From a virus (lineage: Duplodnaviria > Caudoviricetes), in IMG/VR virus record IMGVR_UViG_3300009058_000007, positions 1 through 28,473 of that record: DNA of 28,473 nt, one strand, 5' to 3'. The position numbers were made by a program, and so were the translations under genes. Shown piece by piece: positions 1,916 to 28,473 of the stretch. Every line of letters starts with the position of its first letter. Position 1 is the first letter of the stretch. Below the pieces are notes generated by a model. The model was not told the origin of the DNA and ran no database searches. It saw only the letters and a program-made list of their open reading frames with translations.

Positions 1916-3322
1916 TTAAGCTTTTTTCAATAAGAAGAAGTTATTAGCTCCTTGCGTAATCAAACATCTTTCAGATAAGAAATTAACTTTCATTTCGTCA
2001 ACGTCAGAAGTGTAAGCTCCTCCAACAGATCCAGTAATCCAAGTTTTCATTTTTCTATCATCTGTTTCAGACGAACGGTAACGTACGTGTAAGAATGGAC
2101 GCTTGATGTTTTTACCAAGATCTTGATCGTACACAGTAGAAGTACCAGCAGGAATGATTGCCCCTTCAACATCTCCAAAACCACCTCTTGTAGCGAAGTC
2201 GTTTAAGTATTTCCAGTCAGTCTTATAAAAGTCATAAGATCCACGACGGAAACCAGAGAAGCCTAAGTTTAGTGCCATATCCTCAGAGTTGTTGAATACT
2301 CCGTAAGAAGTTCCACCAGCACCATAAGAATTTTTAGCAGCTAATCCATCATCAATAGATAGAGATAATGCGCGGTTAGCGTAAATCATGTTCTCTTCAA
2401 TTGAACCATTTTTATCTAATTGCTTTAAGATAACGTCAAAGTCAGAAAGATCAGCATCAGAAGATAAATCTTCAAATACATTTCCACGAGCTTCTAAAGC
2501 CGCAAAGAATCCTTCAGAACCAGTATAGCCAGCGCCTAAAGTAGATCCAGCACCTTTCTTAACAGATTCAACCATAGACATTTCTAGGTAGTCCTCAAAT
2601 CGTAAGCGAGTTTCGTGCTCAGACTTCAAGTACCATAGGTATCCAGAAGCTCCGTTCTCAGAAGTTACTTCAATCCATCCAATCTGAGCAGTGTCAGATC
2701 CGTTGATTTGGTAGTTATCTTTTAAGATAATTGGTTTGTTAGTGTAAGAGCTGTAGTCAGCATCAATAGATCCAGTCATTCCAGCAGAACCTTTAGCAAA
2801 CTCAGAACCGTAAACTACAGCAGTAGCTCCGTTACCTAGAGTTAATCCAGTCCAGTCAGCAGCAGTATAACATACAGCTGTGAAAGTTCCTGTAGATGCA
2901 GACGTATTAGCGCCCGCCACGGTAACAACACCTTTAAGTACTGGTCCAACAGGAGCGTTAGCTGCTGTAACACCTTGTACCATGATTGTTTGCCCTACAC
3001 GAATAGCAGGAGCAGAAGCTGTGTCTACGCCAGCTGGTAGAGTAACAGTGAATACGTTACTAGAAATAGCAACATCTTCGTAACGAGTATGTAAACGCCC
3101 TTGCTCTACCCAACGAATTTCGTCAGATGTAGAAGGCATTTCAGCTGATACCATACGTAAGAAAGAAGAGATAGAACGATTTCCATAAATCTCAGCTTCT
3201 TTTTCGTATACATCAGGTAAAAATTGCTTTGTAAAATCAAAGTCTGTAATGTAATTGTTTTGAAATAAAGACCCTTTAGTTTGTGAGGGTTGTAAGTTTT
3301 CAATGCCAGTTGTTAAAGCCAT
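1916..3322 (-). CDS. Major capsid protein
   Basis: 468 aa; follows portal and acidic scaffold and is followed by a strong terminator; motifs QFLPDVYEKEAEIYGNR, WVEQGRLH, LNLGFSGFRRGSYDFYKTDWKYLND and FLSERCL. Confidence 0.85.
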   Translation of the reverse strand: MALTTGIENLQPSQTKGSLFQNNYITDFDFTKQFLPDVYEKEAEIYGNRSISSFLRMVSAEMPSTSDEIRWVEQGRLHTRYEDVAISSNVFTVTLPAGVDTASAPAIRVGQTIMVQGVTAANAPVGPVLKGVVTVAGANTSASTGTFTAVCYTAADWTGLTLGNGATAVVYGSEFAKGSAGMTGSIDADYSSYTNKPIILKDNYQINGSDTAQIGWIEVTSENGASGYLWYLKSEHETRLRFEDYLEMSMVESVKKGAGSTLGAGYTGSEGFFAALEARGNVFEDLSSDADLSDFDVILKQLDKNGSIEENMIYANRALSLSIDDGLAAKNSYGAGGTSYGVFNNSEDMALNLGFSGFRRGSYDFYKTDWKYLNDFATRGGFGDVEGAIIPAGTSTVYDQDLGKNIKRPFLHVRYRSSETDDRKMKTWITGSVGGAYTSDVDEMKVNFLSERCLITQGANNFFLLKKA

Positions 3323-6954: not shown

Positions 6955-9183
6955 CTATTGTATTATTTTACTATTTGATCCTGCGTTGTTGTATTTCGAA
7001 AACCCAAAATCTATTTTTTTAATCTCGCGTGTACTTTTAGATGCGTATAAATGTCTTTGACAAGCCATAATAGCTAGTCCAGAACTTATAGATGCATCAA
7101 ACTTAGTTCTTTTATTAATATCAAACTTCGACCAGTCTTCAAGCGTTCTTTGAAAATACATTCTACCACAAGTGCCATCTTCTTTGATGCCCACGTGGTT
7201 TTCAATATAACTTTCAATGGCAGCTGCATGAGCTTGTCTTATATCTTCTGAAGAGTTAGGTATACCACCCAATTCTTTTTCTGTTACAGAAAGCTTATTT
7301 CTAGACTTATCAGGCCTATTCATTGAATAACCTCTATAGCCTCTTCTTTTAATATGATATAATAGTCTAGGTTTATTGTTTTCCGCTAGTATTGGCATTC
7401 CGTAAAATATCATTGCCATAAGAACGTCTTCAAAAAATATTTCAGCAGTTTGGGGCCTAGCTACGTATTCTAAAAAGAATTGACTAGATGGCACTTCAGA
7501 TAACATATTAAATGTAGTTAATCCATGCAATGCTCCATTTGAACCACTACCGTCGGTTGTTCCAGATATATCATAACTATCGCAACCAAAAGCTCCCATG
7601 TCTTTATTACCAGGATATTTTATACCGTTCTTAACAATTATATTGTTTTGCATACTAACTGGAGGTATCCAAGATAATTTAAATCTTCCAGTTTTATTTG
7701 GGTGAAACTCTACTTCAGAATCTTTCACTCCGTTCTTCCAGCTAAATGATCCTCGGGTTACATAACCCTGCATAACCATTTCTTCGTTGAAATCTATTTG
7801 TTCGTATATTTTATTTAAATTAAATAAAGACTTTTCTATTTCATCTCTAAAGGCATGTTTCTCATATCTAGGAAACTGTCTGTAGAACTCATTAAGCCCA
7901 TCATTGTTTCCTTTAAGCCCATCTGCTTCATTCTCCCAATGCTCGATAACTCCGTAACTGATAAGCTCGCCATCGACTCCTTCGACTGGAGCTTTTGGAG
8001 TATCAAATACAGGGTATCCATATTTATCAATGAATCCTTCGTAGTTCCATTCCATAGGTATGAACAAAGCGTATAATCCACTAGCAGTCTGCCCATTGCG
8101 ATTTCGCTTCGTAACGTTTGAGTCATAGTATAATTTTTTAAAATTCTCACCACCTTTATCTAAAGCATTTGATGTAGAACCCATCATACATTTACCAACT
8201 ACTTTTGCTCCAAGCCTGAGGCACGTTTTTGTGACCCTCCAGTTGTTGAGTATGTTGTCCGGCTTCTCCCATTTTCCCGATTCGTCATGAACAAGTAATC
8301 TGAGTTTCTCCCCATCGTACGAGTTGTCCCCTGTATTTTTCCAATCGATCGTTGTGTCCAATCCTTTTTGGGTTTCGGTTGAGGCTTCGTTAATGGTACT
8401 CCTGGTGAGCCTTCTTGATGGGGTCTTGTATGATAATTCTGTTTTGGGACGTTCCATTCCGTCCTGTATTGGTTTAAAGAAAAACGGATAATTTGCTGAT
8501 ATTGGTACAACTTTATCTGTGAACATCTTCTTTGCATCTGATCCAGATTTAGATAAAATTCCGAATCTGGAATCCCTTGATACTGTAGCTTGATTAACAA
8601 CCTCTGAGCTTCCCATAAAGGAAAAACCAGACCGTCTGTTCTTGAGGTAGCACATTCCATAACTTCTTGAATCAGCTTTGCACGCTTCCCAGAAATAGTA
8701 GAATATCTTGTTTGCCTGCCTAAAGTCCGGTGATCCCACATCAATTTTTGTCCAATTGAGGTAGACATAGTGTGAGCCCGTAATGTAACACGGGATTTTG
8801 TTGCACATGAACCAATAGCCATCAGACCTACGACTAAACTCATTATCGATATAATCGTAGTACTGCTCTTTAAAATCGTCTGGAAGTATTTTGAAATCAT
8901 ATATTGTTTTAATTTTATTTAATGAAGATGGTCTTGGTGTCTTTATAAACACTTGTTCTTCTTTATTTAATTCTTGCCCAGCAATTTTATCTGGTGTTTG
9001 AGGTAATGCAATTCGTAATCCTTGAACTTCATATATTTCACCTATAACACCGGTTTTACTTATAACAACACAATCAATATCTTCGTTATAACCATATTTA
9101 AAAGCCTTAGCTTTATTGGTTTTCTTAACGTGCTTAAGATCTAAATGATCTGTAGTCGTTGTGTATAGCATTTGCTTATACAT
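6955..9183 (-). CDS. terL: Terminase large subunit
   Basis: Walker A-like LKNRRSGFS, Walker B LLVHDESGK, coupling motif GSTSN, nuclease motifs GCDSYD and FDASISSG. Start is placed at the ATG at 9183 rather than the non-ATG start at 9204. Confidence 0.92.
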   Translation of the reverse strand: MYKQMLYTTTTDHLDLKHVKKTNKAKAFKYGYNEDIDCVVISKTGVIGEIYEVQGLRIALPQTPDKIAGQELNKEEQVFIKTPRPSSLNKIKTIYDFKILPDDFKEQYYDYIDNEFSRRSDGYWFMCNKIPCYITGSHYVYLNWTKIDVGSPDFRQANKIFYYFWEACKADSRSYGMCYLKNRRSGFSFMGSSEVVNQATVSRDSRFGILSKSGSDAKKMFTDKVVPISANYPFFFKPIQDGMERPKTELSYKTPSRRLTRSTINEASTETQKGLDTTIDWKNTGDNSYDGEKLRLLVHDESGKWEKPDNILNNWRVTKTCLRLGAKVVGKCMMGSTSNALDKGGENFKKLYYDSNVTKRNRNGQTASGLYALFIPMEWNYEGFIDKYGYPVFDTPKAPVEGVDGELISYGVIEHWENEADGLKGNNDGLNEFYRQFPRYEKHAFRDEIEKSLFNLNKIYEQIDFNEEMVMQGYVTRGSFSWKNGVKDSEVEFHPNKTGRFKLSWIPPVSMQNNIIVKNGIKYPGNKDMGAFGCDSYDISGTTDGSGSNGALHGLTTFNMLSEVPSSQFFLEYVARPQTAEIFFEDVLMAMIFYGMPILAENNKPRLLYHIKRRGYRGYSMNRPDKSRNKLSVTEKELGGIPNSSEDIRQAHAAAIESYIENHVGIKEDGTCGRMYFQRTLEDWSKFDINKRTKFDASISSGLAIMACQRHLYASKSTREIKKIDFGFSKYNNAGSNSKIIQ
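7836..8126 (-). CDS. Putative second nested ORF in the +1 frame of terL (96 aa from ATG 8126)
   Basis: Same frame as 8199..8900; leader TTTTAAAAAATTATACT-ATG; terL uses CTT/ATC/GTC before purines here, which avoids +1-frame stops. Confidence 0.35.
   Translation of the reverse strand: MTQTLRSEIAMGRLLVDYTLCSYLWNGTTKDSLINMDTLYLILQKLQSKESMASLSVTELSSIGRMKQMGLKETMMGLMSSTDSFLDMRNMPLEMK
8199..8900 (-). CDS. Putative lipoprotein gene nested in the +1 frame of terL
   Basis: 233 stop-free codons; leader AATAAAATTAAAACAATAT-ATG; basic n-region, hydrophobic h-region (IISIMSLVVGLMAIG) and lipobox IGS-C32; terL shifts to CTC/GTC codons in this stretch. Confidence 0.6.
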   Translation of the reverse strand: MISKYFQTILKSSTTIISIMSLVVGLMAIGSCATKSRVTLRAHTMSTSIGQKLMWDHRTLGRQTRYSTISGKRAKLIQEVMECATSRTDGLVFPLWEAQRLLIKLQYQGIPDSEFYLNLDQMQRRCSQIKLYQYQQIIRFSLNQYRTEWNVPKQNYHTRPHQEGSPGVPLTKPQPKPKKDWTQRSIGKIQGTTRTMGRNSDYLFMTNRENGRSRTTYSTTGGSQKRASGLEQK

Positions 9184-9436
9184 TAGTGCGGCCCTCCACA
9201 CCAAAAAATTCTCTTTTCTCTTTTTCTCCTTCTTCTTTTATATTAGACAACTCTTCAACTCTATCTAACATTGTGATAGCGTCTTCCATTGCTAATCTAT
9301 ATGCAGAAGCAGATATTTTAACTTTTTCAGGATCTAATTCATCTGGATCCATTTTCTTATTCATAACTTTTATTAATTCGTTTATTGAATTTTCTGTAGC
9401 TTTAAGAATAAGTTCTCGTTTCTTTTTTATGTCCAT
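9176..9436 (-). CDS. Probable terminase small subunit
   Basis: 86-aa helical, charged protein that overlaps the terL start; the call is mainly positional. Confidence 0.5.
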   Translation of the reverse strand: MDIKKKRELILKATENSINELIKVMNKKMDPDELDPEKVKISASAYRLAMEDAITMLDRVEELSNIKEEGEKEKREFFGVEGRTNV

Positions 9437-9989
9437 AGTTGATAGTTATGTCTGTTGATAAAATTCTATATAATTTTTTATCATCTATGTTAAATTCGTA
9501 TTCTGAATCTGGAGTAAACCCTACTATATCGCCATAAGACAATCCTAAGGACTCCAAATAGTCGTTTGTATATGTAAGCTTTCCTAATAGTTTTTGTTCA
9601 CTCTCGGTGCTCCATATGTCTTCGTTTTCTAAAGGTTCTACAAAACAGTACATATTTGGGCAGTGCCACTTACTATTTTGTTTATAAGCAAACAGTTGAT
9701 CTGGTGCGACTATATATTTATCTTCGTCTATATAGCTACCCGAGTTTCTTTCAACTCCTCTCACATCAAACCATCTTCTAAACACATTATGATGTATAAT
9801 AACATCATCTCCTGGTTTTATAGGGGTAGTTATATTAATAGGAACATTAACTACAGTTCCAATTCTGTTAACAAACATATAATCACGTTCAGTAACCTCT
9901 GTGTTTAATATAAGTTCTTTGTTATCGATAGACACTTTATTATCGTATCGATTGGTTGTTGATATAATATAATTGTATAGTGATTTCAT
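9402..9989 (-). CDS. Tandem (two-domain) GroES-like protein
   Basis: Two GroES-like units: GTVVNVP...IKPGDDVIIH...YIV...QLFA and FVEP...GKLTY...LSYGDIVGF....YEFNIDDKKLYRILSTDI. Confidence 0.6.
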   Translation of the reverse strand: MKSLYNYIISTTNRYDNKVSIDNKELILNTEVTERDYMFVNRIGTVVNVPINITTPIKPGDDVIIHHNVFRRWFDVRGVERNSGSYIDEDKYIVAPDQLFAYKQNSKWHCPNMYCFVEPLENEDIWSTESEQKLLGKLTYTNDYLESLGLSYGDIVGFTPDSEYEFNIDDKKLYRILSTDITINYGHKKETRTYS

Positions 9990-10218: not shown

Positions 10219-10575
10219 TTAGTATGTCCAAATAGTTGTGCTTGGTGCTCCAGGATAACCTATACCTACGTGTACAAAATTACTTTTTCTTGATATACCT
10301 ATTCTTTTAAAACCGCATTTTATTGCAGCAGCAACTAATAAGTATGTAGCTTCTCCTCCAACACATTTAATATCTACAGCCGCGCCGTGAGCATGCTCTC
10401 CAGGTTTATCTTTTTTAGCTTCAATTGGATGATCTGGTGATCTATAAGAAGAATTTATAGTTATAGGAAAACCATAGGTTTTTCTAAGAGCATCTAGCAT
10501 ACCTAAAAGCTTAGGGTCCATTTTATCTATGTTTCCTTTAAAATCTTCTTCGTCTGTAAAATATTTTAATTTCAT
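10219..10575 (-). CDS. Endolysin, zinc peptidase M15 family
   Basis: MD..LL..LD.LR...G.PI.INSSYRS..H, H..G.AVDI and FVHV Zn-ligand pattern; adjacent to holin-like genes. Confidence 0.88.
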   Translation of the reverse strand: MKLKYFTDEEDFKGNIDKMDPKLLGMLDALRKTYGFPITINSSYRSPDHPIEAKKDKPGEHAHGAAVDIKCVGGEATYLLVAAAIKCGFKRIGISRKSNFVHVGIGYPGAPSTTIWTY

Positions 10576-10576
10576 A

Positions 10577-10732
10577 TTATTTAAATTTTTTATATATATT
10601 GATTGAAGTATAAACTATTGTAAGCACTAACACAAGCGTTTGCAGCGTAGGGTTAACATTGTGTGCCATGTCTGAACTAGCAAATAATGCCGTTATATTT
10701 AAACCGTATATTTTCAAATCTGTATTTATCAT
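10577..10732 (-). CDS. Small membrane protein (holin/antiholin-like), 51 aa
   Basis: Not in the track. MINTDLKIYGLNITALFASSDMAHNVNPTLQTLVLVLTIVYTSINIYKKFK; ATGA overlap with the upstream gene; fills the gap exactly; hydrophobic helix with a basic tail. Confidence 0.7.
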   Translation of the reverse strand: MINTDLKIYGLNITALFASSDMAHNVNPTLQTLVLVLTIVYTSINIYKKFK

Positions 10733-11142
10733 TTATGTTTATTATTTCCGAACACCTTCTCGACTCCTCGTGATCCGAAATAGCCCCCAATAACTATTGT
10801 TAATAGTCCTGTTATATCATCTAATGGATAACCCATATACCAACCAGCAACATATGATGATGTTAAAAAAACTAACGTTAATGGCCGTACATTAGCGGCA
10901 AGCCAGCTTCCTGACCGAGCGTCTGCAACCCATCTTCTTGTTGTTCCATCAATTTCTGCTCTTTCAATATCTAATTTTTTAAGAGCAACTTCTTTATCTT
11001 CTGGCGACATATCACTACCACCGATTATAGCTTGTATTACAGAACCTACGGGCGTATCACCTGCAATGGCTCCAACAACGCTGGGAATCTTTTGTAATAA
11101 GAATTTCCCAACGTTGGTGTCTTTAAATTTTTTCTTAGCCAT
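10729..11142 (-). CDS. Holin (GTA/3TM-type)
   Basis: RW.AD..S.SWL..NVRPL followed by two hydrophobic helices and GGYFGSRG.EK, a pattern typical of this holin family. Confidence 0.75.
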   Translation of the reverse strand: MAKKKFKDTNVGKFLLQKIPSVVGAIAGDTPVGSVIQAIIGGSDMSPEDKEVALKKLDIERAEIDGTTRRWVADARSGSWLAANVRPLTLVFLTSSYVAGWYMGYPLDDITGLLTIVIGGYFGSRGVEKVFGNNKHK

Positions 11143-20304: not shown

Positions 20305-20754
20305 TTATAATTTTTCTTTGTTAAATTTATCTATTGCGTTTGCATATACTTTATCAACATAAGTAGATCGTTTTCCAATCTTACTTCTTTTAGCTGATAT
20401 AGGCATATCTTCTTTACCAATCAATATTTTATATATTCTATTGATTAGCCGTTTGCCTTTCATAGATACTTTATATTTATTATGATCGCCTAAGCGTCCA
20501 TTTCCTTTATGTATTTTTTCTACCCAACCTTCTCGTTGAATTCTATAAAAGCGTTGCCGATCCCAATGATAATACATAGTACCGTTTTGAAAATCTTTTA
20601 TAGTAAAGTATTTAATAGGATCTAAATAAAATAACAATTCTAAATCTGATATAGTTATATCGTTTTCTTTGCAAGCCCATCTTGATACGAGCCTATAATA
20701 TTTAAGAAAGTCAACTTTTAATTCACCTCTTTCTAAAAAATCGCCCCTATCCAT
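20305..20754 (-). CDS. Winged-helix (MarR-like) DNA-binding protein
   Basis: ITISDLELLFYL...F.RIQREGWVEK...KYKVSMKGKRLI fits a wHTH wing and helix pattern. Confidence 0.55.
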   Translation of the reverse strand: MDRGDFLERGELKVDFLKYYRLVSRWACKENDITISDLELLFYLDPIKYFTIKDFQNGTMYYHWDRQRFYRIQREGWVEKIHKGNGRLGDHNKYKVSMKGKRLINRIYKILIGKEDMPISAKRSKIGKRSTYVDKVYANAIDKFNKEKL

Positions 20755-21014
20755 TATAATACAATTATAACGTCTTGCTCTTGTATAACTTTATATATAT
20801 CTTTACCAATTTCTATATTATGGCCAGCATGTCTGTCGTAATATATCTTGTCATTTTCATTTATACCTTTGATAGCCGCACCTACAGACTTTACATCTGC
20901 GGTACGGTATCTTATATCTTCTCGATGGTTCTCAGCCAATAATAAGCCACCATCTGTCTTTTTAATATCTTCCTTAATTTCGGATATGATAATATATCTA
21001 CCTATTGCCTTCAC
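20754..21014 (-). CDS. groES: Co-chaperonin GroES
   Basis: MKAIGRYIII, mobile loop KTDGGLLL, V.SVG, D.IYY and VIQEQDVI. Confidence 0.9.
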   Translation of the reverse strand: MKAIGRYIIISEIKEDIKKTDGGLLLAENHREDIRYRTADVKSVGAAIKGINENDKIYYDRHAGHNIEIGKDIYKVIQEQDVIIVL

Positions 21015-22596
21015 CTTCTCGTACGTTTGAAATTACACAATCAGTTGATAATATTGTAGTAGCTACAGATACTGCATTTAAAAGTGCAGACTTAGTAACT
21101 AATACTGGATCGATAATACCTGCTTTACGCATATCTTTAATCTCACCGTCTATAACATCAACCCCATTACCCCATTTACCTATCTTAGAATAGTCTTTAG
21201 GGTTTAAACCTGCATTACTTAATATGCGTAGAAACGGTGCGTATAACGCAGCCTTAAGTATCTCTACACCTTTAAGCTCGCCTGCATTCAGATTCATTTC
21301 CCAATCGGAGTTAGCTATGTGCACTAATGCACTTCCGCCTCCTGGTAAAATACCTTCTTTCTTTGCGGCACGCACGGCATGTATAGCATCATCAACACGA
21401 TCTTTCTTTTCAGAAACCTCAACGTCTGTATCGCCACCTACATATACAATAGATACACCGCCATTTAATATGGCTAGTCTATTTTCAATATGCGGTCGCA
21501 TTACATGATGCTCTTCACTTTCAAGTTGTTCACGTAAGTAATCAACTCTTTCTTGTACTTCAGCTGGTACTTCTTTAATTGCAATAGTAGTACCATCATT
21601 ATCTATAATAGCCTTATCGGCTGATCCTAGCACTTCTGGGGTGATGTTGTCAAGCGAGTCTCCTAAGTTCTCATCAATAACAGTAGCACCCGTTAGAAGG
21701 GCAATGTCATCAAGTATATCCTTTCGCTTTAGTCCGAACGAAGGAGGATCAATGATATTGCACTTAATATTGCCTTTTACGTGGTTCATCGCAAGAGCTG
21801 ATACAACCTGCTGATCGCAAGGGGCAATGAGTAATAACGACTTATTGGACTTAATCGCATACTCTAGTATTGTTTGTATACGCCTAACGTTGGCTACTTC
21901 AGACGCACATAAAAAAACGAGTGGCTTATCTAGCTCACTCAATTCTTTTTCTCTATTAGTATAGAAATGTATACTCTTCGATGTAGAATTTATATGTGTA
22001 CCATCTACTACATCTATGTATGTTTCATTAGACGGAGAAGTTTCCATTGTAACAACTCCGTTATCTCCAGCTGCTATAAAAGCATCTGCTATAAAATCAC
22101 CAAGCTCTGCATCATTATTTGCAGATATTCTTGATACTTGGTTTAATCTTTTGTCATCAACTGCAATTCCTTTTTTATCAAGGCTGCTTACCACATGCTT
22201 GCTAAAATTCGTAATACCACTTTTAATATCTCTAAAAGAATAGTCTTCGCCTTTTTGTAAGAAGTAATTGTGAATGAGCGCTTGAGCAAGTACCGTAGAG
22301 GTTGTTGTCCCATCTCCTGCTTTTGATGCTGTTTGTCGAGAAGCCTGCTTTAACATAGTAACACCTAGGTTTTCAACCGGATCTTCTAAGTTAATATAAT
22401 TTGCTACGGTAACACCATCTTTAGTAACGTGTGGGTTACCAAAGTCATCTTCAAGAACTACTGTTCTTCCTGAAGCCCCAAGTGTTGAACCTACAGCTTC
22501 TGCTAGTTTATCTATGCCTGCGATTAGTTTATCTTTAGCTTCTTCTTTAAAGCTTAATTCTTTAACTATCTTCGGCCCTCCAAATTGTATTGCCAT
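20998..22596 (-). CDS. groEL: Chaperonin GroEL
   Basis: TLGASGR.V, VTKDGVTVA, AGDGTTT, EKKDRVDDA..A..AA..EGILPGGG and GIIDP..VTK.AL; there is no C-terminal GGM tail. Confidence 0.97.
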   Translation of the reverse strand: MAIQFGGPKIVKELSFKEEAKDKLIAGIDKLAEAVGSTLGASGRTVVLEDDFGNPHVTKDGVTVANYINLEDPVENLGVTMLKQASRQTASKAGDGTTTSTVLAQALIHNYFLQKGEDYSFRDIKSGITNFSKHVVSSLDKKGIAVDDKRLNQVSRISANNDAELGDFIADAFIAAGDNGVVTMETSPSNETYIDVVDGTHINSTSKSIHFYTNREKELSELDKPLVFLCASEVANVRRIQTILEYAIKSNKSLLLIAPCDQQVVSALAMNHVKGNIKCNIIDPPSFGLKRKDILDDIALLTGATVIDENLGDSLDNITPEVLGSADKAIIDNDGTTIAIKEVPAEVQERVDYLREQLESEEHHVMRPHIENRLAILNGGVSIVYVGGDTDVEVSEKKDRVDDAIHAVRAAKKEGILPGGGSALVHIANSDWEMNLNAGELKGVEILKAALYAPFLRILSNAGLNPKDYSKIGKWGNGVDVIDGEIKDMRKAGIIDPVLVTKSALLNAVSVATTILSTDCVISNVREGEGNR

Positions 22597-25549: not shown

Positions 25550-25966
25550 TTATTTGTTCTTTAATTCCTTATAAGCCGCTTCTCTGTCATCAAAGTCCAA
25601 TGCTGCTTTAAGGATAATCTTATCCATTACATTATCTTGGTTCTCCAAAATAGTTTTCTGTAGATCGATGATCATATGCTCTAAGTTGTCCTTAGCAGCA
25701 ATGAGCTGTTCTATCTGATGGTTCTTTTTCTCTAAGTCTGATTTAAGCGCGTTCACATCATCTGGTTTACTTCCAGTGATCGTAGACACAACTAAACCTA
25801 TCGATGCTGATATTGTACCGATAAGCATCATTACTACTTCCTTATTAGTGTCTAATACTGGATACTTCATCAGTATAAAGATAATCGACATTATAAGTAA
25901 AAATATAAATAAGGAACCAACATAATGCCTGATCTCCTTAGCTACTCCATTTTTAGGTAACTTCAT
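25550..25966 (-). CDS. Membrane protein with two TM helices and a coiled coil
   Basis: Hydrophobic YVGSLFIFLLIMSIIFILM and VVMMLIGTISASIGLVVSTI, then a heptad-rich region. Confidence 0.75.
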   Translation of the reverse strand: MKLPKNGVAKEIRHYVGSLFIFLLIMSIIFILMKYPVLDTNKEVVMMLIGTISASIGLVVSTITGSKPDDVNALKSDLEKKNHQIEQLIAAKDNLEHMIIDLQKTILENQDNVMDKIILKAALDFDDREAAYKELKNK

Positions 25967-26148: not shown

Positions 26149-26391
26149 TTATTTCTTCTTCTTTTTAGCAGCATCTAAGAATCCTCTCTCATACTCTAAC
26201 TGCTTCTCCATATCTAATATGCGATCTTCCAGATCGTTTATAACACGGATCTTCTTATCCAATCTCTCATGAACAGTAGTTAACTCATTCTTTATAGCAG
26301 TAAACTCCGCAAAGATACCACCAGCCGTAAATACAGCAACCAAGAACGATAACACCACTGACATATTGTTCTTTATAAACGTATCCGGCAT
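26149..26391 (-). CDS. Single-TM coiled-coil protein
   Basis: VVLSFLVAVFTAGGIFAEF then a coiled coil and a poly-Lys end; first gene of the late cluster. Confidence 0.7.
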   Translation of the reverse strand: MPDTFIKNNMSVVLSFLVAVFTAGGIFAEFTAIKNELTTVHERLDKKIRVINDLEDRILDMEKQLEYERGFLDAAKKKKK

Positions 26392-26984
26392 ATCAATTTA
26401 TTTTAATTAGTTGTAGAGAAGTAATGTGTTACGTTACGTTATTAGCAATAAAAACGTATATTTAAAGCCATATTCGCAACGTATGCCCCCTATTGTTACA
26501 TACTTTGCAGTGTTTGTATGTATTTGCTGCATTATTGTCAATGTACTTACTTAATTTGTACATTTGTGTATACCGCATTGTAATATACTCAGTTAATGCA
26601 CACATTCATTGTATATAATGCAACATATATACATTGTACTTATTATATTAGTGAATAATTCTAGTTATATTCGCAGTTAATACAATTGTCTTATATCTGT
26701 TTGCATTATTATTATTGTTTAATATGTTTTATCACATTATATTCAATAATACTTAAGTTTATTACTTATATAGTATATATTACATAAAAGTTTAAAAAGG
26801 TATATTTTTGTATTATTTCTTTAATAAAATACGTTACAAATCACATTATGATGTGATAATATATATGTAAGTAACAAAGTAACAGTCTTACGGAGTTTTA
26901 TAAAAGTGATTGCCTCTTGAATATTAATCATTGACCCTTAACCGGGAATAACTAAATAAAGTCCTAGAAATAGGCATTAAAATT
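26392..26984. other. Non-coding, very AT-rich divergence region between late (-) and early (+) genes
   Basis: No ORF in the track; the coding strand switches across it. Confidence 0.8.
26825..26867 (+). promoter_or_regulatory. Conserved phage early promoter, copy 1
   Basis: TAAAATACGTTACAAA-N12-GTGATAATATATATG. Confidence 0.8.
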
Positions 26985-27173
26985 ATGAGAATATTAAGAG
27001 AAAAAAGATTAAACCAAGAGTTAATAAACGGAGTTACACTCACTGAGTTAAGAGATAAATTATATGATGAGATGAATATCCTCCAAGACAATGATAGATT
27101 ATTGCAAGCAATAGGTGCTTATAAAGATATAAAAATAGTTGAAGAGTGGATTGAATTAGAAAATAATAACTAA
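26985..27173 (+). CDS. Hypothetical early protein (62 aa)
   Basis: ORF with a TAAAATT-ATG leader, downstream of promoter 1. Confidence 0.7.
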   Translation: MRILREKRLNQELINGVTLTELRDKLYDEMNILQDNDRLLQAIGAYKDIKIVEEWIELENNN

Positions 27174-27216
27174 TAAAATACGTTGCAAACCAACTAAGAT
27201 TGTGATAATATATATG
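27174..27216 (+). promoter_or_regulatory. Conserved phage early promoter, copy 2
   Basis: TAAAATACGTTGCAAA-N12-GTGATAATATATATG. Confidence 0.85.
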
Positions 27217-27235
27217 AATTAAAAATATAAATACT

Positions 27236-27412
27236 ATGAGATTTCCATCTAACTTTACTACAGAAAACAAAATAACTTTTTACACACAAAGAAAAAAAGA
27301 AATGACTAAACAGTTTAATAAATTTTCTAAACTAAATAAAATAGAACATTCTAATAAATTAAAAAAAGAAATAGAAATCTGTGAAGTAGAATTGTTAAAC
27401 TTAAATAAATAA
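27236..27412 (+). CDS. Hypothetical early protein (58 aa)
   Basis: Hand translation: MRFPSNFTTENKITFYTQRKKEMTKQFNKFSKLNKIEHSNKLKKEIEICEVELLNLNK. Confidence 0.65.
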   Translation: MRFPSNFTTENKITFYTQRKKEMTKQFNKFSKLNKIEHSNKLKKEIEICEVELLNLNK

Positions 27413-27416
27413 AAAT

Positions 27417-27515
27417 ATGAAAACAGAATATACTTTTGAAAGCTTAAATGAATGGAGTAGTGGTGACTTAATATGGTTAGTACTAGAAATGCAAGAAGAA
27501 TTAAAAAATAAATAA
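27417..27515 (+). CDS. Hypothetical early microprotein (32 aa)
   Basis: MKTEYTFESLNEWSSGDLIWLVLEMQEELKNK; tightly packed between neighbours. Confidence 0.6.
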   Translation: MKTEYTFESLNEWSSGDLIWLVLEMQEELKNK

Positions 27516-27516
27516 T

Positions 27517-27738
27517 ATGAAGGAATTAAAAGAATATATGGAAGCTAAGAAAAAAGCTAACGCTTTAAAATGGATGAACGTAGATGGCTACGACACTATC
27601 CAAGGATTCACACAGAGAGAGTTTAATGAGTCCGTGAAACAAATAAAGCGTAAGACCTCAACAACTAGAAGAAGTCACTCTAAAGGCAATTTATGGACTC
27701 ACAATAATTTGCCAAGAATTAAGCAAAATATCTTATAA
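27517..27738 (+). CDS. Hypothetical early protein (73 aa)
   Basis: In the ORF track; its stop codon overlaps promoter 3. Confidence 0.7.
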   Translation: MKELKEYMEAKKKANALKWMNVDGYDTIQGFTQREFNESVKQIKRKTSTTRRSHSKGNLWTHNNLPRIKQNIL

Positions 27739-27778
27739 AATACGTTGCAAAGCAAATAAACAAGTGATAATATAAATG
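27736..27778 (+). promoter_or_regulatory. Conserved phage early promoter, copy 3
   Basis: TAAAATACGTTGCAAA-N12-GTGATAATATAAATG. Confidence 0.85.
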
Positions 27779-27916
27779 ATGAAAACAAATAACCCATACG
27801 ACCAAAAGTTTGAACTATATCTAATAAAAAAAGGTTACAACTTAAACACAATAAGTCTAAACGAAAGTTTAAAAGAATTAAAAATATATAATAAAAAACA
27901 TGAAATACGAAATTAA
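27779..27916 (+). CDS. Hypothetical early microprotein (45 aa; alternative start 27776)
   Basis: MKTNNPYDQKFELYLIKKGYNLNTISLNESLKELKIYNKKHEIRN. Confidence 0.55.
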   Translation: MKTNNPYDQKFELYLIKKGYNLNTISLNESLKELKIYNKKHEIRN

Positions 27917-28013
27917 ATACAACTTAGCAATAGTAACTCCTGAAAAAGATGAAATGTGTAAGTATTCAGTATGGATTCCGTGTGAATGTACAAAATGTAA
28001 AAATTATGCATAA
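27900..28013 (+). CDS. 37-aa Cys-rich microprotein
   Basis: MKYEIKYNLAIVTPEKDEMCKYSVWIPCECTKCKNYA (C-x7-C-x-C-x2-C); overlaps both neighbours by a few nt. Confidence 0.55.
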   Translation: MKYEIKYNLAIVTPEKDEMCKYSVWIPCECTKCKNYA

Positions 28014-28182
28014 ACAAGAAGTAGTAGGTATTGCAAACTTTATAAGAAAGCAATTAGAAGAAAAAGTATTTGATATGATAATAGAAGATTTATTTGAATC
28101 AAGATTGATAACAGAAACAAACGAGGATGCTTTAACATTAGCAACAGTAATAAGAAACCAAGTATTTAATGAAACGGAATAA
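28006..28182 (+). CDS. Hypothetical early protein (58 aa)
   Basis: Start reassigned to ATG 28006 (AAAAATT-ATG leader): MHKQEVVGIANFIRKQLEEK... Confidence 0.65.
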   Translation: MHKQEVVGIANFIRKQLEEKVFDMIIEDLFESRLITETNEDALTLATVIRNQVFNETE

Positions 28183-28300
28183 AAAGAATACAAGAAAAAC
28201 AATAGCAAAGCTAACACAAGAAAAAATAAAAGTTATTGAGCAAGAATATTGGGAAAAATACAATGCAAATATTCCACAATGGCAACAAGAAATGTACTAA
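28169..28300 (+). CDS. Hypothetical early microprotein (43 aa)
   Basis: MKRNKKNTRKTIAKLTQEKIKVIEQEYWEKYNANIPQWQQEMY. Confidence 0.6.
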   Translation: MKRNKKNTRKTIAKLTQEKIKVIEQEYWEKYNANIPQWQQEMY

Positions 28301-28301
28301 T

Positions 28302-28473
28302 ATGAAAACAAAACAAACATGGGTATTTTACGGAGGAACTAACTTTGATTTATCAGTAAAAACAATATACTTCATTAAAGAATGTAAAAACCCAACAAGA
28401 ACAAAAGAATATAGAAAAATGATGGAATTACTTGAAGATAATACTTTCAAAACAGTTGGGCATATGACTTCAA
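28302..28473 (+). CDS. Hypothetical early protein (partial)
   Basis: MKTKQTWVFYGGTNFDLSVKTIYFIKECKNPTRTKEYRK...; open to the window end. Confidence 0.6.
   Translation, partial: MKTKQTWVFYGGTNFDLSVKTIYFIKECKNPTRTKEYRKMMELLEDNTFKTVGHMTS

Follow-up and report, generated by a model that had tools for sequence, protein, structure and literature searches.

A predicted lipoprotein gene overprinted on the large terminase gene of a marine tailed phage and its possible role in place of a spanin

An open frame nested in terL

We analysed a 28,473-nucleotide stretch of viral DNA (Duplodnaviria; Caudoviricetes), corresponding to positions 1 to 28,473 of the IMG/VR record IMGVR_UViG_3300009058_000007 and hereafter called the window. 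The gene for its large terminase subunit, terL (6955..9183, on the minus strand like all other genes of the window described below), harbours in its +1 frame a second open reading frame (ORF), ORF1 (8199..8900), which spans terL codons 102-335 and codes for a predicted lipoprotein of 233 residues. The terL product is 742 residues long from the ATG at 9183 and matches phrog_6681 (E 3e-164); terL codon numbers are counted from the TTG at 9204 throughout. A PDB sequence search with terL gave no match, and the Walker motifs were placed in it according to their usual forms.

A preliminary description of this DNA had pointed out that the +1 frame of terL is open for 233 codons, which is indeed the case, the full stop-free run being 239 codons. 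A length of 233 was reached in none of 20,000 within-gene synonymous permutations (maximum 200) and in none of 20,000 resamplings from the codon usage of the window (maximum 170). As also stated there, the portal and fibre genes are devoid of long alternative frames (+1/+2 runs of 57/31 codons for the portal, 55/50 for the 1002-aa gene and 45/45 for the 1188-aa gene), and all seven quoted codon triplets in which CTC or GTC precedes an A were found, at terL 149, 187, 266, 301, 319, 324 and 329. The description left out two further +1 runs, one of 107 codons elsewhere in terL and one of 68 codons in the 468-aa structural gene. The latter, at 3106-3303, is the next longest same-strand run outside terL and is probably due to chance.

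ORF1 has no match in Pfam or PHROG, and its best ESM Atlas hit (0.77) lies under the threshold. A protein search gave 20 homologues, which all seem to be gene predictions made on this frame of terL and are not independent of terL.

Conservation of the +1 frame in relatives

Among 70 relatives selected by terL, 51 have no +1 stop in the core of the overlap (terL 121-231), none has a single stop and 19 have two to eight. Four queries together yielded 202 loci, of which 135 have no stop, 3 have one and 64 have two to nine, although these counts come from mixed queries and do not represent a prevalence. Of 73 loci retrieved with a terL whose frame is broken, 26 are open. With the endolysin as query, which takes no account of ORF1, we retrieved 35 loci of the window's own clade (hereafter type A), and all 35 are open. 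The alignment of terL homologues that had been proposed to check the prediction is favourable to it, in that the frame stays open in many of them.

A null model based on each sequence's own codon usage predicts approximately four stops, and the expected numbers of stop-free sequences are 0.00 of 19 for type A and 0.11 of 46 for the other open group, type B. In type A, xTA codons are absent before purines (0/124), a context in which a +1 stop would result, and frequent before pyrimidines (47/84), the corresponding proportions in broken lineages being 70/123 and 83/117. Avoidance of xTA only where a +1 stop would form is therefore not a GC effect, and a GC island as the cause of the open frame was discarded on the basis of this next-base test. 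As type B is defined by zero stops, its own count (0/294) is circular and was not relied on. Among the five alternative frames, only +1 falls to zero stops.

A tree, only midpoint-rooted, was based on the part of terL that follows residue 340. In it, type A forms one side of a branch (40/40, SH-aLRT 98), type-B and broken loci are interspersed, and at least five changes between open and broken labels are forced. The frame is broken in the outgroups L160 (62%) and Elemovirus isolate L161. Taken as sequence evidence, these analyses make it almost certain that ORF1 is a real overprinted gene.

Start and signal sites of ORF1

ORF1 is preceded by an A-rich predicted translation initiation region (8901..8920) with a score of 5.3, which exceeds those of 99.5% of 18,653 out-of-frame internal ATGs and ranks at the 60th percentile when set among 1,060 real starts. 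This agrees with the earlier remark that its leader resembles those of real genes; part of the A-richness derives from Lys and Ile codons of terL. At terL 102, the ORF1 frame has Met in 54 of the 61 type-A loci; terL has Tyr at this position in type A and mostly Phe in the others. A start is present 12-48 codons ahead of the Cys residue in all 19 type-A and all 46 type-B representatives, with type-B starts being less uniform and approximately half of them scoring no better than ordinary internal ATGs.

Residues 1-31 (8808..8900) constitute a predicted signal peptide at the type-A site, with a maximal 15-residue hydropathy of 2.48, and precede Cys32 (8805..8807; IGS-C-AT), the predicted lipidation site. 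The signal has the features of the Sec/SPII type, i.e. a basic n-region, a hydrophobic h-region and a lipobox Cys, selected in relatives. In type A it ends with xGSC-AT at terL 133, and the Cys residue is present in all 61 open loci. The Ser residue at -1 requires that the overlapping Phe codon of terL be TTC, which is used in 54 of 61 loci, compared with 60 of 598 Phe codons elsewhere. Cys32 is supplied by Met133 of terL (Met-Cys), which is common to the broken-frame outgroup L160. The preliminary description had proposed a lipoprotein signal ending at this residue: selection on the start, the h-region and Ser at -1 in relatives supports it, but Cys32 itself is given by the Met-Cys pair of terL.

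Type-B loci harbour a hydrophobic stretch at terL 134-146 followed by C-x-C-S at 147-150. The equivalent segment of the window (8754..8804) is polar and Cys-free, as in the rest of its clade. The +1 hydropathy of terL 134-146 is -0.07 in type A (null 1.34) and 2.29 in type B (null 0.98). Cys149 is found in 43 of 46 type-B, none of 19 type-A and 7 of 20 broken representatives, and the type-B residues Ser150 (40/46 vs 5/20 broken) and Leu142 (44/46 vs 8/20 broken) follow the same trend. In type B, Cys149 results from a synonymous choice in terL (TTG in 35 and CTG in 8 of 46), with Tyr or Phe in broken lineages, and the Cys residue itself is therefore selected. The two signal sites are 14-16 codons apart and each is used by different clades. 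In the simplest reading of these sequences the signal moved upstream in type A, but as the tree is only midpoint-rooted, two separate signal origins on the same frame may also account for this pattern.

Over the signal, synonymous variation of terL is suppressed, with 4-fold sites at 0.37-0.38 vs 0.58-0.61 and a synonymous ratio of 0.78-0.83 in close type-A pairs, although broken pairs also have 0.78 at terL 96-135. RNA folding at terL 121-157 has a mean z of -2.2 in 12 type-A sequences and of -1.3 in type B and broken loci.

Composition of the mature tail

The mature part of ORF1 (8202..8804) is polar, with a net charge of +20, no C-terminal membrane helix and no confident fold. In the window, its maximal 15-residue hydropathy is 0.96 and its proportion of Phe, Ile, Leu, Met and Val is 0.22 vs 0.41 expected. 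Over terL 151-300, hydrophobic residues are depleted in all 19 type-A and all 46 type-B representatives and in 2 of the 20 broken ones, and the proportion of Ser, Thr, Pro and Gln rises from approximately 0.16 to 0.30-0.32, with no shift outside the overlap. The C-terminus is free to vary, with the stop ranging from terL 232 to 336 across relatives and 18 of the 46 type-B representatives stopping at or before terL 279. It ends with polar residues in all 20 aligned proteins, without the C-terminal transmembrane domain expected of a unimolecular spanin (u-spanin). An AlphaFold model has a mean pLDDT of 39.5, with values <50 for 202 of the 233 residues, and its sole confident helix comprises residues 2-30.

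Other traits that had been highlighted fare less well. The Pro-rich character holds over terL 232-300 (10% Pro vs 3% expected), but the mature part as a whole has only 4.5% Pro, and the Pro/Lys-rich stretch (8364..8411) overlies a variable, indel-bearing loop of terL. The two additional Cys residues, Cys83 and Cys126, are forced by Met codons of terL and are present in 19 and 20 of the 20 broken relatives, respectively, and so lose their value as evidence. Likewise, we set aside the 'invariant' columns of the ORF1 alignment, including the invariant Trp residues, as they are forced by terL. Selection acts on the start site, on the lipoprotein-type signal and on the polarity of the tail, not on its sequence. 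As polar composition is kept while sequence and length drift and no fold is apparent, selection thus appears to maintain an exported, anchored, polar chain rather than a fixed fold.

Mutual exclusion with u-spanin-type genes

The u-spanin layout, a lipoprotein signal with a C-terminal membrane helix, is coded directly after the endolysin gene in two broken-frame records, L059 (145 aa) and the complete genome G002 (162 aa); in the latter, we take the upstream DUF5675 gene to be the endolysin. The SC-AT motif of type A resembles the SC-AS start of these proteins. Two unrelated families of this type were found after different endolysins (L059:395-829 and L316:18841-19326, minus strand), without a Pfam family, one of them matching phrog_5885, of unknown function.

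Searches outward from the L059 and G002 genes yielded 41 loci, 20 of which include terL, the other 21 having no terL in the fetched stretch. In all 20 loci with both terL and a u-spanin-type gene the +1 frame is broken; two of these are the query contigs and two cover the core only partly. L442 and L451 have a single stop, located within the type-B signal. The 15 u-spanin-bearing rows of the tree form approximately three separate clusters among open relatives. Conversely, no member of either u-spanin family was detected in 32 open records, including nine that are at least 85% complete.

Single-transmembrane (TM) helical proteins that might serve as inner-membrane spanins (i-spanins) occur in six of nine near-complete open genomes and in three broken records; they are found in none of the 41 u-spanin loci and are absent from the complete G002. 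In the window, the candidate is an 80-aa protein (26149..26391) with one hydrophobic segment and a charged, helical-type tail, of which no homologue was found in the fetched records. A 138-aa membrane protein with two segments (25550..25966) has relatives adjoining the endolysin gene in G020 and G022 and is found in both open and broken-frame genomes.

Several other observations were made on lysis regions. Two short Cys-rich hydrophobic ORFs in the open genomes G014 and G016 were judged spurious. Motif and Pfam searches (38 of 87 cluster representatives and 10 others) found no endolysin in 12 broken-frame records. A large broken group (G001, G008, G009, G011, G012, G013, G036, G037 and G048; 42-75% complete) has no recognisable endolysin or spanin, and several of its members keep a holin-like gene before terL. 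L367:3950-5907 and L416:2413-3756 code for a 350-365-aa protein with a Cys-bearing signal and a single-TM helical protein, together with a thioredoxin-like gene (in G011).

A second +1 frame in terL

A candidate second overprinted frame, ORF2 (7836..8126), would code for 96 residues from an ATG at terL 360, with a conserved core at 7990-8142. The +1 frame is stop-free over terL 349-426 in all 62 type-A loci, and over terL 349-405 in 61 of 73 type-B and 55 of 65 broken loci. Relative to background, synonymous divergence at terL 355-405 is 0.60, 0.51 and 0.63 in type A, type B and broken loci, respectively, a stronger suppression than anywhere in ORF1, and Ala and Ser changes at terL 379 both keep the +1 Leu. 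The start score of the window ATG at 8126 is 9.2. Only 33 of the 62 type-A loci share that ATG (31 have one at 363 in a weak context), and few sites of the frame are at risk of a stop. RNA folding over the core is only weakly raised (mean z of -0.1 to -1.2, 12 sequences per group). A 105-aa form of ORF2 matched nothing in Pfam or PHROG, and the best ESM Atlas hits of ORF2, to Snf7 fragments (0.83), were under the threshold and disregarded. We lean towards ORF2 coding for a small protein; otherwise, it would be a cis element. As ORF2 is retained in most loci with a u-spanin and lacks a clean membrane helix, it is not a dedicated partner of ORF1.

Genomic setting of terL

The late genes of the minus strand are, in order, those for the holin (10729..11142; phrog_3427, E 1e-12), a 51-aa membrane protein (10577..10732), an M15 peptidase endolysin (10219..10575; PF08291, E 4e-13; phrog_894), a 72-aa protein, a GroES-like protein, an 86-aa protein, terL, the portal and structural proteins. 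The 51-aa protein is holin-like, with a weak match to the phrog_920 holin (E 0.0014). Its gene, shorter than the usual ORF cut-off, recurs in 47 loci, of which 42 are type A. The window also has two GroES-like genes and one GroEL-like gene (9402-9989, 20754-21014 and 20998-22596); in almost every relative, one GroES-like gene (phrog_13932) comes directly ahead of the 86-aa gene and terL. The annotated 876-aa terL of Elemovirus L161 (L161:5518-8148) starts right after GroES, apparently absorbing the region that corresponds to the separate small gene of the window. At 26400-28473, GC content drops to 24-28% and skews reverse, where the late operon gives way to an arm on the opposite strand.

The protein identities of terL are 45% with Elemovirus, 41% with Maribacter phage Panino, 37% with the Cellulophaga phi19:3 group, 36% with Calle/phi38:1 and 31% with Gundel. 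These named relatives are flavobacterial podophages, and the host would therefore belong to the Flavobacteriia. The window shares its terL family and the GroES-terL-portal order with Elemovirus, Pachyviridae and Pervagoviridae podophages (PMC8776804). It differs from Elemovirus isolate L161 and MW202828 (L160), the only two of these isolates checked for the state of the frame, which have a broken frame and stand-alone lipoprotein-like genes near their lysis genes. The latter genes (L160:1482-2105 and L161:4171-4716), annotated as hypothetical, code for proteins with beta-strand-type C-termini and no transmembrane domain. In the passages of PMC8776804 considered, u-spanins are annotated in Ingeline and Nekkels and none is named for Calle or Gundel.

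Approximately 7,100 stored IMG/VR stretches match the window terL, and at least half of the words of the stretch are present in 14 marine DNA runs. Contigs from RNA libraries also cover it and carry neither strand, level nor frame information.

Discussion

ORF1 resembles Rz1 of phage lambda, described in PMC6139136, in being a lipoprotein-type gene in the +1 frame of a late gene near the lysis cassette, with a disorder-promoting composition. It differs from Rz1, as presented there, in that its host gene is terL rather than that of an i-spanin and that its mature part has approximately 200 residues with 4.5% Pro, compared with 40 residues including 10 Pro for Rz1. Moreover, its additional Cys residues are forced by terL and its tail sequence is not conserved. 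With u-spanins of the T1 gp11 type (same source) and those of L059 and G002, ORF1 shares an N-terminal lipoprotein signal ending with SC-A, and the two are mutually exclusive at 20 of 20 informative loci; unlike them, it has no C-terminal transmembrane helix, and it has no sequence similarity to them. Nearest in proposed action is the disruptin gp28 of phage phiKT, which according to 10.1101/515445 is a 56-aa amphipathic cationic peptide, coded by its own gene, that replaces the spanins lacking in that phage. ORF1 is likewise cationic and would do the same job, but it has an export signal with a Cys residue, is four times longer and is overprinted.

We consider that ORF1 probably fulfils a role equivalent to that of a spanin. 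The more specific proposal that its lipid-anchored, unstructured, basic tail stands in for a spanin without any partner seems to us a serious one, a little short of an even chance. ORF1 would be read from the same late transcript as the holin and endolysin genes, which lie 1.3 kb upstream. Lipoproteins are sorted by the Lol system according to the residue at +2. The ORF1 signal would receive its lipid at Cys32 and be cleaved, and the protein, with Ala rather than Asp at +2, would be sorted to the outer membrane. After the action of the holin and endolysin, the polycationic tail of approximately 200 residues would bridge or destabilise the membranes through its charge and length and not through a fixed fold. 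This would account for selection on composition alongside drift in sequence and length. Lineages acquiring a conventional u-spanin would then let the frame decay.

A number of observations weigh against this proposal. The tail, in which suppressed synonymous variation had been predicted, shows none: across 24 disjoint pairs of closely related type-A sequences, its synonymous divergence is 1.24 and 1.45 times that of the background. In 15 type-B pairs the ratio is 1.13-1.15, and no suppression was found over the whole region (median pair ratio 0.99-1.02). Normal synonymous rates, which the preliminary description would have taken as a sign against a hidden gene, are therefore seen over the tail but not over the signal; the raised tail divergence could reflect a more even third-base composition. 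The Lys and Arg content is not above the null, and the basic charge therefore largely comes free from terL. With Gly at -2, IGSC departs from the lipobox consensus [LVI][ASTVI][GAS]C given in PMC6139136, although deviants such as FVGC are also listed there. The 20 loci with both terL and a u-spanin-type gene are related, and three clusters at a base rate of approximately 0.3 give an estimated p of only approximately 0.03. The complete broken-frame genome G020 has the same M15/holin cassette as the window, and no u-spanin or lipoprotein was found in it. Of 15 broken-frame records, just one holds a u-spanin; among the remaining 14, 12 are <76% complete and likewise showed no endolysin. Finally, the open L234 has an unrelated, stand-alone 88-aa lipoprotein gene next to the holin gene, and the open G031 and G029 code for small lipoproteins elsewhere in the genome. 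In view of L234, mutual exclusion therefore holds for u-spanin-type genes and not for any lipoprotein. A spanin-like role of the kind first suggested for ORF1 is favoured by this exclusion, but the specific likeness to Rz1 is weak, with Cys residues that are by-products, a free C-terminus, an unsuppressed tail and no established i-spanin partner.

Could ORF1 nevertheless be a true outer-membrane spanin (o-spanin) of a separated two-component system, whose partner is a single-TM coiled-coil protein coded elsewhere, such as that at 26149-26391 or the family next to the endolysin in relatives? This would account equally for the exclusion with u-spanins, single-TM helical proteins have the distribution described above in near-complete open genomes, u-spanin loci and G002, and in type B another Cys, two residues away from the first, is maintained by selection. 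Separated architectures do exist (118 of 528 in PMC6139136), but ORF1 is embedded in terL with the nearest single-TM candidate 17 kb away. Within families, o-spanins keep homology across their periplasmic domain (same source), whereas neither the tail sequence nor the C-terminal end of ORF1 is conserved, and Cys83 and Cys126 are forced by terL. The candidate partners are also present in three broken records and missing from three of the nine near-complete open genomes, and that of the window has no homologue in the fetched records, making this reading unlikely. Somewhat less likely still is an exclusion or receptor-masking lipoprotein, whose fast-changing tail would track host receptors. The known examples, Llp and Cor of phage T5, are small, folded, receptor-blocking lipoproteins coded by their own genes. 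Like them, ORF1 would be a lipoprotein in which no acidic stretch follows the Cys residue, and its above-background tail divergence (1.24-1.45) and repeated loss (at least five forced label changes) would fit such a function. Unlike what such a relationship would predict, it matches no Pfam or PHROG family; its tail has no confident fold, and the exclusion with u-spanins would be left unexplained.

Two other explanations question the lipidation or the protein itself. A real protein might be cleaved by signal peptidase I, or kept as an inner-membrane signal anchor, and serve another purpose such as lysis timing. A small-x-small site is also compatible with S-C-A (type A) and T-C-S (type B), and Cys32 and the type-B Cys147 come free from Met codons of terL, with Thr at -1 in type B being atypical. 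The dependence of the type-B Cys149 on synonymous choice, which marks it as selected, argues in the opposite direction, and we regard this explanation as improbable. As for there being no protein, the open frame then stemming from codon bias, a GC-richer segment or an RNA or DNA element in terL, the unsuppressed synonymous sites of the tail and the mild excess of RNA folding at terL 121-157 would agree with it. However, xTA is avoided only at would-be +1 stops, stop counts are bimodal, only the +1 frame reaches zero and, in two separate clades, the features of the signal go together with an open frame, which makes this a very remote prospect.

Returning to the partner-free spanin substitute, we tentatively raise the idea, which is far from assured, that ORF1 might define a novel class: a lipid-tethered disordered polycation born in the terL ATPase gene, with a signal shifted by 14-16 codons through recoding of terL, swappable with captured u-spanins and followed by a second, older overprinted gene, such that approximately 40% of terL would be dual-coding. 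Our literature search, with most subscription papers outside its reach, found no account of a gene overprinted on terL. Phage phylogenies and tests of selection use terL as their standard marker, and dual coding in a third of the gene therefore matters for such analyses. The relatives offer a natural series for the birth of an overprinted gene in tailed phages, with absence in outgroups, two signal sites, a variable tail and repeated loss beside a captured u-spanin. If our interpretation is true, a spanin substitute hidden in terL, invisible to gene callers, would explain part of the spanin gap in an abundant marine group.

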